Program-made: the position numbers and the translations under genes
Source of the DNA: Calditrichia bacterium
GTDB taxonomy: Bacteria > Calditrichota > Calditrichia > JAJRVZ01
DNA: 64,000 nucleotides
Assembly: GCA_963777955.1 (NCBI GenBank)
Contig: CAVZSQ010000001.1
Coordinates: 64,001-128,000 of the forward strand
Direction of reading: 5' to 3'
Part shown: one piece after another, positions 33,829-46,410 of the stretch
Layout: each line of letters begins with the position of its first letter
How positions within the stretch are numbered: the stretch's first letter is position 1
Notes under the pieces: generated by a model
Databases searched by the model: none
Told to the model about the DNA's origin: nothing
What the model saw: the letters and a program-made list of their open reading frames with translations, nothing else

Positions 33829-35014
33829 ATGTTCGGATCCATGCAAACGGTAGTTCGGGAACAGATCGAAGCAATTAAAAACGAGGGTCTCTATAAAGAG
33901 GAACGCATCATTTGCAGCCCGCAGGATGCCCATATTGAGGTGAAGGGGGGTAAGCAGGTACTGAATCTGTGCGCTAATAATTATCTGGGTCTGGCTGCGC
34001 ATCCTCAGGTCATAGCTGCTGCTATGGACAGTTATAAACAGTGGGGCTACGGTCTATCCTCGGTGCGTTTTATCTGCGGTACCCAGGAAATACATAAGCA
34101 ACTGGAACAACAGATCTCGGAATTTTTAGGCACAGAAGATACTATTTTGTATAGCTCCTGTTTTGACGCCAATGGGGGATTATTTGAAACATTACTGACG
34201 GAACAGGATGCGATTATCAGTGATGAACTTAATCACGCCAGTATCATTGATGGTGTTCGTTTGTGCAAAGCCCAGCGTTTCCGCTATCTGAACAGCAACA
34301 TGGCTGAACTGGAGCAAATATTAAGGGAAACGCAGGCGAAACAGGTTCCGCATGATCGCCACGGATGGTGTATTTTCCATGGATGGTTATATTGCCAACC
34401 TGAAAGATATCTGTGAATTGGCTGAAAAATATAATGCCCAGGTTATGGTCGATGATTCACATGCGGTAGGTTTCATCGGCAAAAGCGGACGGGGATCCCA
34501 TGATTATAACGAAGTAATGGGACGGGTGGATGTGCTCACTGGTACCCTGGGCAAGGCGCTGGGGGGAGCCAGTGGCGGTTATACCAGCGGCCGGAAAGAA
34601 ATTGTGGAATTACTGCGTCAACGGTCACGTCCTTATCTTTTTTCCAATACTGTGGCCCCGGCTATTATCATGGCGTCGCTGAAAGTCCTGGAACTACTGA
34701 CCAGCACTGATCAACTGCGGAAAAAATTGATGGAGAATACAGCATACTTCCGCGCTGAAATGACGAAACTGGGATTTAATATTTTAGCGGGCATTCATCC
34801 CATCGTGCCGGTAATGCTTGGAGATGCTGTGCTGGCCAAGCAAATAGCGGCACGCCTGCTGGAGAAAGGTGTCTATGTAATCGGTTTTTCTTTTCCGGTA
34901 GTACCCAGGGGCAAAGCACGCATACGTACCCAGATCTCGGCAGCACACTCTCATCAGGATCTGCAATTTGCCATTCAGAAATTTGCAGAAGTGAAGGAAG
35001 AATTTAAAATCTGA
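33829..35014 (+). CDS. kbl: Glycine C-acetyltransferase (2-amino-3-ketobutyrate CoA ligase), frameshifted near 34345
   Basis: [25 protein letters not shown] and [10 protein letters not shown] (PLP lysine). Confidence 0.95.
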
Positions 35015-38098: not shown

Positions 38099-38107
<9 letters not shown>

Positions 38108-39545
38108 CTCAAACTTTTTTGCCACCCTTGATCCGGCATAGCCAATTTCAATTCCCAGCATGCTAAGTTCATCCGCTAAGGTCAGGACATTATTAACGAA
38201 TCCCTGTCTCTCCCGGCGCGGAGCTCCGGGTTTGATCCATTCCGCTTCGGTACCCAGACAAAGTTCGGGGATGATCCCGTATCCTCCGGGAACCTTTCCA
38301 GAACGGTGAGAGGGTGAAATTGTATAGCCCAATTTTCTGGCTGTAGCAATGGTCTGTATGGTTCTGACGATGGTACCGGCCTGATTGGGTTTGATTAGGA
38401 TGGAATTAGCACAATCCGACAGTCTTTCGGTTTCCGCGGCATCGGTTACGAATAAATCGTCCCCCTGCAACTCCACATGACCGCCGATTTGTTTCATCAG
38501 CATATGCCAGCCCAGCTGATCTTCCGAGTTCATACCATCTTCGATAGAACGAATACTATAACGATCAACCATGGTGCTCCAGAATTGAACCATGCCTTCG
38601 GCATTCAGCGGTTTTTCACCCGGATTCAGGTCATATAGAAATTTGTCCGATCCCTCTTGCTCCGGACGCGAAAACTCTGATGCTGCTGCATCCGCTGCTA
38701 TTACGACTTTTCCGGTCAAGCCGGCTTTTTCGATCGCTTTTGCCGACAGTTCATATACTTCTTCCGGTTTGGTCAGAGCCGGAGAAATACCGGCCTCAAA
38801 TCCCACATTATCAACCTTGGCAATTTCAATAATTTTTTTCAGTACCTCAATGCCCATGAAAAGCGCTTCTTCAAAGTTTTTTGCCCCGATCGGTGCAACT
38901 TTTGTTTCCTGCAGCCAGATATAGGGTAATCCGTCAGGTCGTTTGGTTCCGGAATGACGGCCGAAGTTTAAAATATTAAATTTGGGCAAGGGCGCTACCA
39001 GACCTTGCGTATTGAGTTTCTTGCCTTGAATATGTAATAATATTGCCCGCATAGCCAGGGCAGCGGGCAGTTCGTAATAGGCAGCCTGGGCATCCAGCAG
39101 GGCCACTGTTGCAGCAATAGCTACCTCCGAGCCGATACCGCTGGTAGGACGTGCATTCTCAAGTTTCCTTTGTACAGCCAACTCCCGGTCTAAATCTAAA
39201 ACAATCTGGTCAACCACAAAGGGATTCAGTAATTCCGGTCCTTTTTTATTTAATTTTTTCTCCAGGGTAGCGACATGTTCAATGGCCGACTTGTAATTAT
39301 TCAGAGCTCTGTGGTTCCCTGACTCCCCCGGAGGTAGCCATCGGTGCCACACCGGTACCCATAAATATTTTTCCGTTTATTTCTAAAGCAGCCGTTACGC
39401 CGAATGTCCTGAAAGGCATAACCTTGGTACCCGCATATTCTCTGCCCAGCAATTTGACTTTGACATTGATTTTTGCTGTTTTACCGGCAACCAAAGATTG
39501 CATTGCCTCCAGCACATCCGGATTATAAACTCTTCCAAAAGACAT
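38099..39545 (-). CDS. Divergent enolase-family protein, frameshifted near 39320
   Basis: DAAASEF, SIEDGM, GDDLFVT, ILIKPNQAG and SHRSG. The N-terminus lies in ORF 39297-39545, which has an AGGAGG RBS. Confidence 0.8.
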
Positions 39546-39749: not shown

Positions 39750-40936
39750 ATGAAGATATTAAAGACTGCTATTATTGGTTCAGGATTTATGGGTTCTGCT
39801 CATGCGGAAGCGCTGCGGCGGATTGCCGGAGTGGAAATACTGGCTATTGCTTCGGATGATCTGCCCCGCGCCAGAGAACTTGCCGAATATTATGATATCC
39901 CTAATATTTTTGATAACTGGCGTGATGCTACTCATCATCCCGAGGTCCAGGTCATTCATAATTGCACGCCCAACTATCTGCATTACGAGATCAACAAGGC
40001 TGTCATCCAGGCCGGAAAACATATTGTGTCGGAAAAACCTTTAACTGTCAACAGCCGTGAATCTGCCGACCTGGTAAATCTGGCCAAAAAGAGAAATGTG
40101 GTTACGGCGATAAATTTTAATTACAGGTTTTATCCTTTAATTCAACAGATCAGACAGATTATATCCAGCGGGGAATTGGGCCCAATTTATTTAATCCATG
40201 GCAATTACCTGCAGGACTGGTTAATTTATGATACCGATTATAACTGGCGTCTGGAAACTGACCAGAGCGGAAAATCCCGGGCTATCGCCGATATTGGTTC
40301 GCACTGGTGCGACCTGGTGCAATTTGTCAGCGGCTTGACGATTGAAAAAGTGTGTGCGGATCTGATTACCATTCATAAACAGCGGAAAAAACCAAAACAT
40401 GCTATCGAAACGTTTAAGGGAAAAGAGGAATCCGCCAGCTCCGCCAGCGCTCCGCCGGCTCCGCCAGCGGAGAATTTGATTCCATTCCTATCCGCACTGA
40501 AGACGCCGGTTCAGTCCTGTTGCATCTTTCCAGCGGAGTAAGTGGTGTTTTTACGGTCTCCCAGGTGAGTGCCGGACGTAAAAATCACTTCAGCTTCGAG
40601 ATCGACGGGGCCCGAAAATCAGTTTACTGGAATCAGGAGGAACCTAACCAGTTATGGATTGGTTACCGCGAAAAGGGAAACGAAGTAATTATTAAGGATC
40701 CTTCTTTATTAGCTAAAAATGTGCGCCAGTATGCACATTATCCCGGCGGTCACCCCGAAGGATATGCGGAGGGGCCTAAAAATTTGTTTAATAATGTCTA
40801 TACTTATATCCGGCAGCAAAAGGATCCATTAAAAGATCCTGCTGATTTTCCGACCTTTGCTGACGGCTACCGGGCTAACAAGATTGTGGAAGCAATCATG
40901 AAGAGTAATACGAAGAAGGCGTGGGTTAAAGTATAA
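39750..40936 (+). CDS. Gfo/Idh/MocA oxidoreductase, frameshifted near 40450
   Basis: [23 protein letters not shown] and PGGHPEG. Confidence 0.9.
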
Positions 40937-42002: not shown

Positions 42003-42043
42003 TCGCCTTCGGCGACCTACTTTTTGTCTGGCCAAAAAGTAGG
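42003..42043. repeat. Double hairpin (repeat element or terminator)
   Basis: TCGCC-ttc-GGCGA followed by CCTACTTTTTG-tctggc-CAAAAAGTAGG. Confidence 0.5.
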
Positions 42044-42318
42044 CAAGTCGGGACTCAAACATAAATTCGCGAATAAAAAAATCATTCTGAGTAATTCTAA
42101 TATCCACAATATGGTAGAATTATATGATCAATTAAAAACAAAGTCATATTCTGATAAACATTTATTCAAGCCGATATACTTCTTGATCTCAAAGTAATTT
42201 TGACCATTCTTCTGGTAAGTTTTCACCAACAGCCTCAAAAAAGAGGTTAATCATCGTCGCAAGCGTACGCCTTGACCATATCCTTAATTCAACTAATGTT
42301 AACGCGAATAAAATTAGC

Positions 42319-42362
42319 TTGACTTTGCAATAGTTGTATAATACATTAGTTGCGTAATACAT
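42319..42362 (+). promoter_or_regulatory. Promoter and tandem operator of the marR-hgcAB operon
   Basis: TTGACT-17 bp-TACATT. Tandem 16-mers TAGTTGTATAATACAT and TAGTTGCGTAATACAT; the first contains the palindrome TGTAT-A-ATACA. Confidence 0.65.
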
Positions 42363-42873
42363 GGATAGGAATAATCAAATGGATATTCAAACCATACAGA
42401 ATTTCCGCCGGAGCCTGCGCAGTATCGAGCGGGAGGTGGAACAGCAAATCAAAAATGACACGGTCTGCTGCGGTGTCTCCCTGGCACAATGCCATGTACT
42501 GATGGAGTTGGGTCTGGGCGGGGGCATGACCATTGCTGAACTGGCGGAAATTATCAAACTTGATAAAAGCACCCTCAGCCGTACCATTGATAGTCTGGTG
42601 CAGACAGGCCTGGTAGACCGCACTATCGATCCCGCGGACCGGCGCTATATGCAGATTAAACTTACCGAACAGGGTCATAAGGTTTTCAATGACATCAACA
42701 CCGGTTGTAATCAACTTTATTTGAAAGTATTTGATTTGATCCCAACTGCGAAACACAAACAGGTAATCGATAACCTGGGACTCTTTGCCAGGGCACTCGC
42801 AAAGGTGCATAAAGATGAGTCTGCCGTTATTAACTGTTTCTGTGCGGTTGATGATAGAAAGGAGAAGTCATGA
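42361..42873 (+). CDS. Cys-rich MarR-family transcriptional regulator
   Basis: wHTH (TIAELAEIIKLDKSTLSRTIDSLVQTGLVDR...DRR...LTEQG) plus CCGVSLAQCH and a C-terminal CFC. Its stop overlaps the hgcA start (ATGA). Confidence 0.92.
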   Translation: MDRNNQMDIQTIQNFRRSLRSIEREVEQQIKNDTVCCGVSLAQCHVLMELGLGGGMTIAELAEIIKLDKSTLSRTIDSLVQTGLVDRTIDPADRRYMQIKLTEQGHKVFNDINTGCNQLYLKVFDLIPTAKHKQVIDNLGLFARALAKVHKDESAVINCFCAVDDRKEKS

Positions 42874-43949
42874 GCGATACCTGTGGACCCTCCTGCTGCG
42901 GCAGTCAGAATATAAACAGCGGGGTATCAATACAGCCGTTAATCGATGCCGACTGGATCAGCGGATACATGGCCACCAGTATAGGATTGGTTCCTACCAT
43001 CTCAACCGATCTTGACCGTAGTGATCGGTTAAGTGCGGTAAAAGTACGCTGGGGGATCGGACGAATGAATTATCAGATTCCGCCGGGTCTCTATGCAGTT
43101 GGTCAACCGGGAGCATCATCGCCGGTACTGGTCAGCGCCAATTACAAATTAACCTTTGACCGTGTACGTTCACAGTTAAAGGATATAAATGCCTGGATTA
43201 TGGTGCTGGATACCAAGGGCATCAATGTCTGGTGTGCGGCAGGGAAGGGGACATTCGGGACCAGCGAACTGATAAACAGAATCCGCTTGACCCGCCTGGA
43301 CCAGATAGTAAGCCATAATAAACTTATTCTGCCGCAACTTTCTGCTCCGGGTGTTGCCGCACATATCGTTAAAGAAATGACCGGATTTAATATTAAATAT
43401 GGACCGGTTTATGCCCATGATCTTCCTGAATATTTCCGGAATCAATCGCGGATTATCCCGGAAATGCGGCGGATCCGTTTTCCGCTTAGAAACCGTCTGG
43501 CCCTAATCCCGATGGAACTAGTACCGGCACTCAAGTATATTCCCATCTTTCTGATCTGGCTGGTGATCATCCAGTTCCTGCGTGACCGGCATTTGTCTTT
43601 TTCGATACTGACCGAATTTGTACCATATTTTATAGCCGTTCTCAGTGGATCTGTGTTGTTTCAGATCCTGCTGCCCTGGTTGCCGTTCAGGTCGTTTATC
43701 GTCAACGGCTGGTTGCTGGCTGCAGCATTGATTGTAACAACCGGTGTATGGACCGGAACGAATGTTCTATCCCTTCTGCCATTGTTGTTGATACTGCCGC
43801 CGGTTTCGGCTTATCTGGCGGTTAATTTCACCGGGTCAACTACTTTCACCTCATTATCCGGTGTGAAGAAAGAACTGGCCTGGGGTATCCCGCTGATCAT
43901 CGGTTCAATCATAGTCGGAATGGTCATCCAGATTGTCATGGTAGTGTGA
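42870..43949 (+). CDS. hgcA: Mercury methylation corrinoid protein HgcA
   Basis: Cap-helix motif INVWCAAGKGTFG, SANYKLTFD, LPQLSAPGVAAH, C-terminal TM helices and NFTGSTTFTSLSGVKKE. Confidence 0.97.
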   Translation: MSDTCGPSCCGSQNINSGVSIQPLIDADWISGYMATSIGLVPTISTDLDRSDRLSAVKVRWGIGRMNYQIPPGLYAVGQPGASSPVLVSANYKLTFDRVRSQLKDINAWIMVLDTKGINVWCAAGKGTFGTSELINRIRLTRLDQIVSHNKLILPQLSAPGVAAHIVKEMTGFNIKYGPVYAHDLPEYFRNQSRIIPEMRRIRFPLRNRLALIPMELVPALKYIPIFLIWLVIIQFLRDRHLSFSILTEFVPYFIAVLSGSVLFQILLPWLPFRSFIVNGWLLAAALIVTTGVWTGTNVLSLLPLLLILPPVSAYLAVNFTGSTTFTSLSGVKKELAWGIPLIIGSIIVGMVIQIVMVV

Positions 43950-43962
43950 GGAGGATTTTAAA

Positions 43963-44256
43963 ATGGCACTGATATATTTAAAAAATGTAGTGACGCTTAA
44001 ACTGGATACGGATAAATGCGATGGCTGCGGGATGTGCGTGCAGGTTTGTCCTCATGACGTTTTTCACATCGAAAAACGGAAAGCGCTGATAGGGGACAGG
44101 GATGCCTGCATGGAATGCGGGGCCTGTGCCCGGAACTGTGCAGCTGGTGCGCTGTTCGTTCAAGCCGGAGTCGGTTGCGCCACAGCGGTGATCAACAGTA
44201 AAATACATGGCAGCCAACCGGCCTGTGGCTGTTCCGAAACGGCTTGCTGTAATTAA
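43963..44256 (+). CDS. hgcB: Mercury methylation ferredoxin HgcB
   Basis: Two CxxCxxCxxxC motifs, the CMECGAC signature, GVGCA and a C-terminal CC; immediately follows hgcA. Confidence 0.97.
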   Translation: MALIYLKNVVTLKLDTDKCDGCGMCVQVCPHDVFHIEKRKALIGDRDACMECGACARNCAAGALFVQAGVGCATAVINSKIHGSQPACGCSETACCN

Positions 44257-44259
44257 AAA

Positions 44260-44286
44260 GCAGGGGCGTAAATTATACGCCCCTAC
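44260..44286. terminator. GTAG-type REP hairpin and likely bidirectional terminator
   Basis: GCAGGGGCGTA-aatta-TACGCCCCTAC between convergent genes. Confidence 0.6.
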
Positions 44287-44726
44287 TTGAAAAATCCCTC
44301 GCGAAGATTAATGCCATGTTCCAGATAAACTTTCAAACAACAGAGCATATGCATCCAGCCCTGGCAGTTGCCGTATGAAGCCTCCAGGGCTGTTGGAGTT
44401 TCAGGCCAACCCGCTTCGGCAATGCTGACCATGGTTTTCGCCGGATTGACAGATTCCAATTTGATTTCGACGACAGTATTATAACCACCTTCAGCCGAGC
44501 CCCATTCGAATTGAATTAATGAATTTTTCACCGCCTTTTTGATATAAACAGGAAAAGCGCCGGGATAGTCGGCAAAATCCCAGGTGACAGTTTTTCCTTC
44601 TTCCAGGCGTCCGCTTGCTCCTGCAGTAGTAAAATACTTACTTAATTGAGCCGGATCGGCAATGGCCTCAAAAACGACCGAAACAGGTTTATCGATTCTG
44701 CCCTGTACCTTGAATTTTAAATCCAT
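44283..44726 (-). CDS. SRPBCC/AHA1-like domain protein
   Basis: VFEAIADP.QLSKYF...EG.TVTW...GWMHMLCCLKVYLEHG. Confidence 0.88.
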   Translation of the reverse strand: MDLKFKVQGRIDKPVSVVFEAIADPAQLSKYFTTAGASGRLEEGKTVTWDFADYPGAFPVYIKKAVKNSLIQFEWGSAEGGYNTVVEIKLESVNPAKTMVSIAEAGWPETPTALEASYGNCQGWMHMLCCLKVYLEHGINLREGFFK

Positions 44727-44863
44727 CTATAATTCCTTTCCATTAACCATCTGAATTTTCCTGCCGGCAGATCTGTTTTTTTGACGAAGCCCAGAATCTC
44801 TGTATAAAACTTAAGCGCCTTTTCCTGGTTTTCTACTATTATACTGCTGAGTTTAATTTTCGT
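44717..44863 (-). pseudogene. Truncated VOC/glyoxalase family gene (start codon ACG)
   Basis: GGAGG RBS, then ACG-KIKLSSIIVENQEKALKFYTEILGFVKKTDLPAGKFRWL; only 48 aa. Confidence 0.65.
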
Positions 44864-44945
44864 ACGAACCTCCAGCTTGAAAATAGGTATCTTCCGAGAT
44901 CTGCTTTTTCTATCTTTGTCTCTTTGTCTCTTTGTACCTTTGTCC

Positions 44946-45380
44946 CTATTTAGTCGTCTCCACCAATTCCTTCAAACCATTGAGCACCATTTTCCAATTC
45001 TGTTCAGAATGATTTTTTTCCTCGGCTGTGGCATTATTGTCCTGTGTAATATTTAATCTGGTCCCCTGCTTCTCCGGTTTAAGTTCATAAGTGATGCTTT
45101 TATAATTTTCCGGAGCATCGGGCAAACCTGATAAACTGCTCCAATAAGTAGTTAGGAGTAATTTACCGGGAACAAGATCTATAATGGTACCTTTATCTAA
45201 ATATTCTTTGCCTTCCCAGGTCCCTTTATAAATGATTGGATTGCCAACTTTCCAGTCGGTCTGGACCTCCGTACCAAACAGGTACTGTTTGATCATGACA
45301 GGATTCACCAACGCTTCCCACACTTTAACTGCTGGAGCGTTTATGGTGATCGATTGTTTTGCTATATGATTTGTGTTCAT
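44946..45380 (-). CDS. SRPBCC/AHA1-like domain protein
   Basis: ITINAPAVKVWEALVNP...W.VG..I...NWKMVLNGLKELVE. Confidence 0.9.
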   Translation of the reverse strand: MNTNHIAKQSITINAPAVKVWEALVNPVMIKQYLFGTEVQTDWKVGNPIIYKGTWEGKEYLDKGTIIDLVPGKLLLTTYWSSLSGLPDAPENYKSITYELKPEKQGTRLNITQDNNATAEEKNHSEQNWKMVLNGLKELVETTK

Positions 45381-45640: not shown

Positions 45641-46045
45641 ATGAAGTTGGAAAATAGCGAAATATTCAAAGCCCTGGCTGTACCGAACCGGTTGCACATT
45701 ATTGCCATTCTGAAATCACGCGGCCCGCACGGTGCGAAAGAGATAGCCCGTCTGATCGGTATCACCCCCGCTGCGGCCTCCCAGCATCTCAGGGTACTGC
45801 GACAGGCCGGTTTGATTCGCAGTGAAAGGAAAGGGTACTGGATACCCCATTCTATAGACGAAAAAGCTATGGAAAACTGCCGGTGCATCGTCGATGAGAT
45901 CTGTACCTGTCATCCCGGAGGGAAAACCGGTGTAAAAAAGGAGGAAATAAATAATCTGGAAAGTCTGAAAAAATATAAAAAAGAACTGGAACAGGAATTA
46001 CAGTCAGTCCTGAAGCGAATCGATGAAATAAAACAGGGAAAATAA
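45641..46045 (+). CDS. ArsR/SmtB-family regulator with Cys-rich coiled-coil tail
   Basis: FKALAVPNRLHII...ASQHLRVLRQAGLI.SERKG, then CRC...CTC and a coiled coil. Confidence 0.9.
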   Translation: MKLENSEIFKALAVPNRLHIIAILKSRGPHGAKEIARLIGITPAAASQHLRVLRQAGLIRSERKGYWIPHSIDEKAMENCRCIVDEICTCHPGGKTGVKKEEINNLESLKKYKKELEQELQSVLKRIDEIKQGK

Positions 46046-46215: not shown

Positions 46216-46410
46216 ATGTTAGGATCAAAGACAGCACATCATGGAGATTCTTGCTGCAACACGGATCAATCTTCCTGCGGCTGCGGCACATTCTCCCGGC
46301 GCTTTGTATCAGCCAAAGAAGAGCAAACCTGGCTGGAAGATTATAAAAGCCAGTTGCAGAACGAATTAGCCGGAGTGGAAGAGCGTATGCAGGAAATTAA
46401 GAAGAAATAA
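46216..46410 (+). CDS. Small His/Cys-rich coiled-coil protein (DUF5320-like)
   Basis: AAGGAGGT RBS; HHGDSCC...CGCG...EEQTWLEDYKSQLQNELAGVEERMQEIK. Confidence 0.8.
   Translation: MLGSKTAHHGDSCCNTDQSSCGCGTFSRRFVSAKEEQTWLEDYKSQLQNELAGVEERMQEIKKK

Follow-up and report, generated by a model that had tools for sequence, protein, structure and literature searches.

A putative MarR_ars-like repressor with a defined operator ahead of the hgcAB mercury-methylation genes of a Calditrichia bacterium and of members of other phyla

It is established that HgcA performs cobalamin-dependent methyl transfer and that HgcB has a reducing role in mercury methylation. Here we describe a locus in which hgcA and hgcB directly follow a gene for a regulator of the MarR family, whose members are homodimers. 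It lies in a stretch of 64,000 nucleotides from a Calditrichia bacterium (positions 64,001 to 128,000 of contig CAVZSQ010000001.1, assembly GCA_963777955.1), which is called the window below and supplies the coordinates. The closest described regulator is AdMarR_ars of Achromobacter deleyi As-55, a repressor of arsenic genes that As(III) or Sb(III) releases via C36, C37 and C157; the report gives no operator sequence and names neither hgc genes nor arsM as a target (10.1101/2021.08.12.456183). For Pseudodesulfovibrio mercurii ND132, the accessible text of another report describes ArsR2 (DND132_1054), an unrelated ArsR, and the induction of hgcAB by arsenic (10.1101/2022.10.17.512643). A MarR ahead of hgcA has been mentioned for two isolates, linked neither to an ars operon nor to a toxin-antitoxin (TA) system (PMC10349881), and the accessible part of a further study places an unnamed “putative transcriptional regulator” directly before hgcAB in 112 genomes of different phyla, a text in which the word “MarR” is absent (PMC7438021).

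The window regulator resembles AdMarR_ars in its MarR fold, in a vicinal CC before the second helix and a C-terminal tail cysteine at near-identical spacing, in its length (~163 vs 164 aa), in its autoregulatory layout, and in having relatives beside arsN and arsP. It differs in its target, which is hgcAB instead of arsV, arsN and arsP, and in its additional cysteines (C38, C110 and a CxC motif). With ArsR2 it shares the position of a Cys-rich regulator straight before hgcAB; according to the accessible text, ArsR2 is co-expressed with hgcAB and arsenic raises hgcA expression. In contrast, ArsR2 is an ArsR/SmtB protein with close homologues only in Desulfovibrionaceae, as far as that text goes (10.1101/2022.10.17.512643), whereas the window protein fails ArsR cut-offs. 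Inspected by eye, the MarR proteins of the two isolates (PMC10349881), which like the window protein precede hgcA, have CC both early in the sequence and at the C-terminus and, judged by these motifs, probably belong to the same family; operator, ligand and prevalence are absent from that paper. The regulator of the 112 genomes (PMC7438021) may belong, wholly or partly, to this family. The HgcA/HgcB pair itself (NF040863/NF040864) is no different in kind from those described. No MarR regulator is mentioned in the accessible parts of PMC11653729, PMC10504345 and PMC11984097, and we found no paper giving an operator, a link to MarR_ars or a prevalence, although subscription papers and supplements (Fig. 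S3 of the MarR_ars paper, Table S4 of the ArsR2 paper) may do so. What appears to be new is a MarR_ars-like putative repressor with a defined operator that heads hgcAB across phyla, the arsenic link having been anticipated in print.

The first-pass annotation, made from the letters of the window, had read a complete hgcA-hgcB operon behind marR and had proposed profile searches and a tree as checks; both agree with it. HgcA and HgcB exceed the cut-offs of their own profiles (Table 1), while HgcA stays below those of the fused HgcAB-like model (210.7 vs 285) and the CdhE-type model (76 vs 306). HgcA residues 119-126 (43224-43247) read NVWCAAGK, in agreement with the cap helix consensus N(V/I)WCA(A/S)GK, and its C-terminal half contains four hydrophobic segments (Kyte-Doolittle >1.8), as expected of the membrane domain. 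HgcB has two CxxCxxCxxxC motifs (residues 19-29 and 49-59, the second containing CMECGAC) and a vicinal C95-C96 pair one residue before its C-terminal end. In a tree of 39 rows, the window protein stands among HgcAs and away from three same-class paralogues reading NVWCAS(T/A/C)G; the sub-cut-off model scores and this position rule out CdhE or a fused paralogue. The three genes lie on the plus strand with open reading frames, and the marR stop overlaps the hgcA start as ATGA at 42870-42873, so that the overlap and the lack of frameshifts stand as first described. With all sequence hallmarks present, hgcAB is genuine, and mercury methylation is its predicted activity. The N-terminus of HgcA (42870-42905) is a Cys-rich extension with three cysteines in the first ten residues, which is also present in G001, a genome of the same genus.

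The regulator matches two MarR profiles above cut-off (PF12802, 61.1 vs 27; PF01047, 55.6 vs 24.6), and the top Foldseek matches of its AlphaFold model (predicted local distance difference test, pLDDT, 85.4) are MarR proteins (YusO, MepR, MexR, ST1710). An assignment to ArsR/SmtB is ruled out by profile scores (NF033788, 20.7 vs 55; PF01022, 20.5 vs 22) and by the MarR fold of the model. The Cys-bearing loop (27-29) and tail (156-163) have a pLDDT <50, and the geometry of the cysteine site is therefore not readable from the model. The protein had been described as a thiol-rich MarR with CC, C and CxC; fold and motifs hold, and with C110, which had been overlooked, the cysteines number six (30, 31, 38, 110, 153, 155). 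The CC pair (C30-C31) and C38 are invariant in an alignment of 45 sequences, i.e., the window protein and 44 chosen from 120 listed matches. A C-terminal tail cysteine is present in 81/86 relatives, and CC, the C38 equivalent and a tail cysteine are kept together in 107 of 134 MarR proteins; C30, C31 and C38 also occur in 86/86 relatives, a count that is circular for the 80 loci retrieved with that very pattern and is not used as evidence. The start of marR is most likely at 42379, judged by the ten closest homologues, which are 164-165 aa long and align from the Met encoded there, and by the spacing of an upstream AGGA; a start at 42361 is ruled out by homologue lengths and alignment start.

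Upstream of marR, a predicted sigma-70 promoter coincides with tandem operator boxes (Table 1). Taken alone, the match to the sigma-70 consensus is close to chance in the window (8 found vs 4.6 expected), but its -10 TACATT is at the same time the right arm of box 1. The boxes embody a 16-bp direct repeat (42328-42343/42344-42359), each unit of which is itself an imperfect palindrome, making the element a tandem of dyads. The scoring matrix was trained on 79 other loci with the window excluded, one of them (L093) being an 87%-identical relative. Box 1 is the second-best single site in the genome, in which a score above 20 bits is reached at just 2 of 4.24 million positions; the two boxes form the best tandem pair in the 4.24-Mb genome (34.5 bits vs 15.1 for the next independent pair). 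Tandem 16-bp sites over the -10 and the start had been noticed at first sight, and they are confirmed by this ranking and by their de novo recovery in relatives. A count of the window-derived pattern (2 matches, 0.01 expected) is circular and was not used as evidence; an inverted 10-mer at 42290-42299 lies outside any scoring box and was rejected as part of the operator. The hairpins that close the upstream operon likely insulate the marR promoter.

Table 1. Features of the marR-hgcAB locus in the window, and the separate ars operon of the same genome.
Feature	Position	Strand	Description
Two hairpins closing upstream sugar-phosphate-isomerase operon	42003..42043	+	Terminator-like 42003-42015, inverted repeat 42016-42043; likely terminator
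Possible weak third box	42314..42334	.	Over -35, same 16-bp register; 4.6 bits, uncertain
Predicted sigma-70 promoter	42319..42347	+	-35 TTGACT 42319-42324, 17-nt spacer, -10 TACATT 42342-42347
Operator box 1	42330..42350	.	Imperfect palindrome ATAGTTGTATAATACATTAGT; covers spacer and -10; 22.7 bits
Operator box 2	42346..42366	.	16 bp downstream of box 1, over predicted transcription start; 11.8 bits
Likely ribosome-binding site AGGA	42367..42370	+	8 nt before marR ATG; from sequence
marR	42379..42873	+	164-aa MarR-family regulator, MarR_ars-like; PF12802 and PF01047, AlphaFold/Foldseek, Cys conservation
hgcA	42870..43949	+	359 aa, corrinoid methyl-transfer protein; NF040863 421.9 bits (cut-off 275); start overlaps marR stop
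hgcB	43963..44256	+	97 aa, 2x[4Fe-4S] ferredoxin, C-terminal CC; NF040864 125.1 bits (cut-off 99); 13 nt past hgcA stop
13-bp hairpin between hgcB and convergent AHSA1-domain gene	44258..44288	.	Likely shared terminator; T-tail only on minus strand
Separate ars operon	G000:C22:832404-837238 (L242)		ArsR, ArsP-family permease, ArsC-like, ArsE-type thioredoxin, Acr3, thioredoxin-like, membrane protein

The layout was followed in two samples. Starting from marR, 80 genome loci were collected by the marR peptide pattern alone (the best 80 of 131): in 54 of them hgcA shares the strand of marR and starts at most ~330 nt downstream, in two hgcAB lies just upstream, and 24 have no hgcAB. Among six metagenome loci, hgcA comes next in five, and the sixth ends 128 nt past marR. 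The marR loci belong to KSB1, Desulfobacterota, Acidobacteriota, Spirochaetota, Bacillota, Bacteroidota and Wallbacteria. Starting from hgcA, even samples were taken from five phyla, best-scoring first (30/33, 24/24, 30/51, 18/18 and 30/44 places), and 129 loci remained after removal of three centre genomes. The MarR family is found within 1.5 kb upstream of hgcA in 52 of these (36 close, 16 divergent or truncated), ArsR in 19 and an AbrB-like gene in 6, with one locus having both MarR and ArsR; the five phyla were picked because they hold marR loci, so that the MarR share is not a global frequency. It is 4/29 in the Desulfobacterota sample. The marR-hgcAB layout is a cross-phylum cassette, common and not peculiar to this host. 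As a separate observation, AbrB/MazE-like genes, several with N-terminal cysteines, stand directly before hgcA in five Desulfobacterota loci and one of Spirochaetota (L111, L112, L113, L137, L138, L189); this class has been reported mainly for archaea (PMC10349881).

Collecting such neighbourhoods and searching them for a motif, as the first-pass annotation had suggested, recovered the palindrome. A palindrome-constrained expectation-maximization search, run on 79 upstream regions after dereplication and with the window left out, yields the consensus ATAGTTGYA-N3-TRCAACTAT (19 bits, 16-bp period). Upstream regions of marR score >8 bits in 81/86 and >10 bits in 79/86 cases, counts that are partly circular as they come from the training set, compared with 1.1% of dinucleotide shuffles >10. 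Among the hgcA-first loci held out from training, i.e., the 129 minus 7 that overlap the training set, 2 that are short and 4 with marR at a contig edge, a box >10 bits precedes 40/42 MarR-headed loci and 0/74 others; ArsR-headed hgcA loci lack it. The tandem arrangement recurs as well: 57 secondary matches include 30 at +16 bp and 24 at -16 bp, and in 39/74 box-bearing relatives the right arm doubles as the -10 of a TTG-type promoter in the geometry of the window. In the four training loci without a box before marR, the best site of each lies at the head of the marR-containing gene run. This distribution is, as a sequence pattern, that of an autoregulatory operator. The 22 wider marR-hgcA gaps contain no separate box, which is consistent with one promoter. 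Moreover, since the box heads the gene run and in two loci (L081, L082) stands directly before hgcA with marR last, hgcA itself appears to be under the box; in G036, marR and hgcA are each preceded by a box. The same box is retained by two divergent Cys-rich MarR subclades that likewise stand at the head of hgcA and show either one early Cys or a displaced pair (L110, L127, L180, L192, L229, L231, L235; L140, L141, L143, L153, L165, L170).

The genes behind those relatives that are not linked to hgcAB point to arsenic. In 14 of the 24 non-hgc genome loci, and with the same box, the first or second downstream gene is arsM, arsP or arsN1-like (arsM called above the NF008823 cut-off, arsP by PF03773); the others have a smaller S-adenosylmethionine methyltransferase (4), a MATE pump (2) or other genes (4). 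Four plasmid relatives lie within or beside ars-type genes, heading arsN2, arsN1-like-acr3-arsC-arsD-arsA or arsP-family genes; three have the box, and two of these three also have one before the arsP-family gene. A 100%-supported Acidobacteriota clade of the MarR tree joins marR-arsM (4), marR-hgcAB (1) and marR-hgcAB-arsM (L048). In the window protein, C30, C31 and C153/C155 match the AdMarR_ars triad C36, C37 and C157, a comparison of motif and spacing instead of a full alignment, with the context of the founder read by eye from the primers of that paper. Given this cysteine layout and the arsenic genes behind non-hgc relatives, trivalent As or Sb is the likeliest signal, which by analogy favours the metalloid side of the “metal(loid)- or redox-responsive” control first proposed, and narrows it. 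A MarR_ars gene is expected in or beside an ars operon, a setting seen for relatives, while the window gene is surrounded by hgcAB, an isomerase gene and genes with AHSA1 domains; the proxies for MarR_ars in the tree (a Deinococcus marR-arsN2, 34% identity, and L156) have long branches of poorly supported position. Since its neighbours are not ars genes and proxies stood in for the founder on the tree, the protein is said to work like MarR_ars, and is not filed as a member. Mixed units were also seen: marR-hgcAB-arsM (L048:4968-7722), acr3 between hgcA and hgcB (L060), marR-box-arsN2-hgcA (L156/L244), and, in G036 (L245), marR-box-hgcAB followed by an acetyltransferase that resembles ArsN2 by eye.

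We propose that marR, hgcA and hgcB would be transcribed as a single unit from the promoter at 42319-42347, and that MarR dimers on boxes 16 bp apart would block the -10 and the start. The C30-C31 pair and a C-terminal tail cysteine would form a metalloid site as in AdMarR_ars; binding of As(III) or Sb(III), as arsenite or methylarsenite, would release MarR and thereby raise the amount of HgcAB, the predicted mercury-methylating pair. Repression of hgcAB through the tandem sites had been proposed at the outset, and fold, layout and the operator conserved in the comparative tests agree with it; autorepression of the unit is, on this comparative basis, very probable. Arsenic or antimony as the inducer, argued by analogy, is rather likely, and the whole chain from repression to release appears somewhat more probable than its alternatives combined. 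Several points weigh against it. The Fisher P of 4e-29 for the co-occurrence of box and MarR is too strong, kin being non-independent; two held-out MarR-headed loci (L118, L236) lack the box, and none was detected before the Deinococcus marR-arsN2 relative. Eight queries found no ars gene in the fetched flanks of 47/54 marR-hgcA genome loci, and the window unit has none either. The ars operon of the genome is ArsR-led and has no strong box, the best site (9.8 bits) lying outside it. The large MarR clade of the window is mostly hgc-linked (48/56 rows), so that specificity may have drifted, and apart from near kin all MarR relatives are <50% identical. Clade membership with AdMarR_ars would rest on motif and spacing, the founder standing outside the tree, and the binding, transcript and induction steps are likewise deduced from sequence comparison.

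The alternative that fares best keeps repressor and operator and changes the signal: the hgc-linked clade might sense Hg(II) or methylmercury, Cu, Cd or Zn, or thiol oxidation or persulfidation. The six cysteines, which exceed the MarR_ars triad and include the invariant C38 and a C110 retained in 32/86 relatives, would fit such a sensor, as would the lack of ars genes at most hgc loci; cysteine oxidation is, moreover, a common cue for MarRs according to the accessible part of a paper (PMC11672702). Yet the nearest non-hgc relatives head arsM, arsP or arsN, no mer or peroxide-defence gene occurs among the 50 (of 95) neighbouring open reading frames scanned at non-hgc loci, and hgc and ars targets, while clustered, interleave on the MarR tree with 8 changes between them. 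In ND132, hgcA transcription is described as unaffected by Hg in the accessible source, although the regulator there is a different one. A signal other than As or Sb thus seems unlikely, if a serious contender.

More doubtful is that hgcAB is a passenger behind an autoregulated ars-type marR, with accidental co-regulation or an own or leaky promoter and no selected role. Such a reading would accommodate the many kinds of gene behind which hgcA sits (53 of the 129 hgcA loci, two on short contigs, have no MarR, ArsR or AbrB within 1.5 kb), the weak correlation of marR and hgcA distances (Mantel rho 0.24) and a weak promoter-like match inside marR (42560-42587). It accords poorly with a pairing kept over at least six named phyla with overlaps or short gaps, with the box shifting ahead of hgcA where marR is last, with the several distinct MarR subclades that head hgcA, and with the 30/54 loci in which MarR and HgcA have the same nearest neighbour. 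That another factor binds the boxes, or that MarR is an activator or a ligand-dependent co-repressor of the AdcR/ZitR kind, is very improbable: Zn-sensing MarRs do bind DNA better with metal, and an equally strong single box precedes a ParD/ParE pair on contig C2, but the boxes over the -10 and the start occupy a repressor position, box and MarR family co-occur almost perfectly, and the AdcR model scores 27.7 against a cut-off of 175. This C2 site (G000:C2:2426-2446, L243), at 23.7 bits the best single box of the genome, precedes the ParD-like/ParE-like pair by ~50 nt and, by ~480 nt, a divergent gene run that by eye consists of a regulator and suf-like genes. It has no tandem partner, and could serve either the antitoxin as its own operator or MarR as a second target. 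A wider MarR regulon was not found in the genome, where C2:2426 is the one other site >20 bits and none lies at the ars operon.

The host, first described as of the Fibrobacteres-Chlorobi-Bacteroidetes (FCB) type, probably belongs to Calditrichota: the name-bearing RecA matches (2 of 120 listed) are both Calditrichia, at 87-88%. Calditrichota is an FCB-allied group. HgcA was found in 4/86 of its genomes, a sample of one class that is smaller than the KSB1 sample, and hgcAB has been reported for Calditrichaeota before, as the accessible part of a paper indicates (PMC8163782). The window HgcA clusters with sequences of the KSB1 phylum (97% support in the Shimodaira-Hasegawa-like approximate likelihood ratio test, SH-aLRT), and a clade joining it to the two other HgcAs from Calditrichota is rejected by an approximately unbiased test (p=0.0001; the group was named after the tree had been viewed), which points to an acquisition separate from the other HgcAs of the phylum. 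Around the unit, two genes with AHSA1/SRPBCC domains (44283-45380, minus strand) converge on hgcB, a neighbourhood kept in G001. An ArsR/SmtB regulator whose tail contains Cys (45641-46045; NF033788, 75.8 vs 55) lies 1.4 kb from hgcB and is followed by a small Cys-rich open reading frame without family match (46216-46410). Three neighbouring genes are split into overlapping reading frames (33829-35014, aminotransferase-like; 38099-39545, enolase-like; 39750-40936, oxidoreductase-like; named by eye), which suggests frameshift errors of the assembly that leave the hgc unit unaffected.

The locus bears on the control and purpose of hgcAB, for which a single regulator has been tested, an ArsR whose close homologues are limited to one family. 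Against this background, the MarR family described here is the commonest regulator ahead of hgcA in the five sampled phyla, and its defined operator, the cysteines named and two cultured methylators that probably carry it make arsenic control of methylmercury genes directly testable. The box might also serve as a marker that sorts environmental hgcA genes by regulatory class. At its boldest, the pattern would mean that hgcAB is at root an arsenic-response pair, with HgcAB natively a cobalamin-dependent methyltransferase acting on trivalent (organo)arsenic and mercury methylation a side reaction; we regard this as a speculation with rather little probability, prompted by two unrelated arsenite sensors, ArsR2 and the MarR_ars-like protein, that would each control hgcAB, and by the exchange of arsM and hgcAB behind the same repressor and operator. 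Relevant to it, no protein reaches the ArsM cut-off in the host genome, which does contain an ars operon. In the accessible part of a lake study, arsR-like genes accompany lower hgcA expression (PMC11984097). If arsenic is indeed the inducer, co-contamination with arsenic could be one reason for the poor prediction of methylation from hgcA gene counts.

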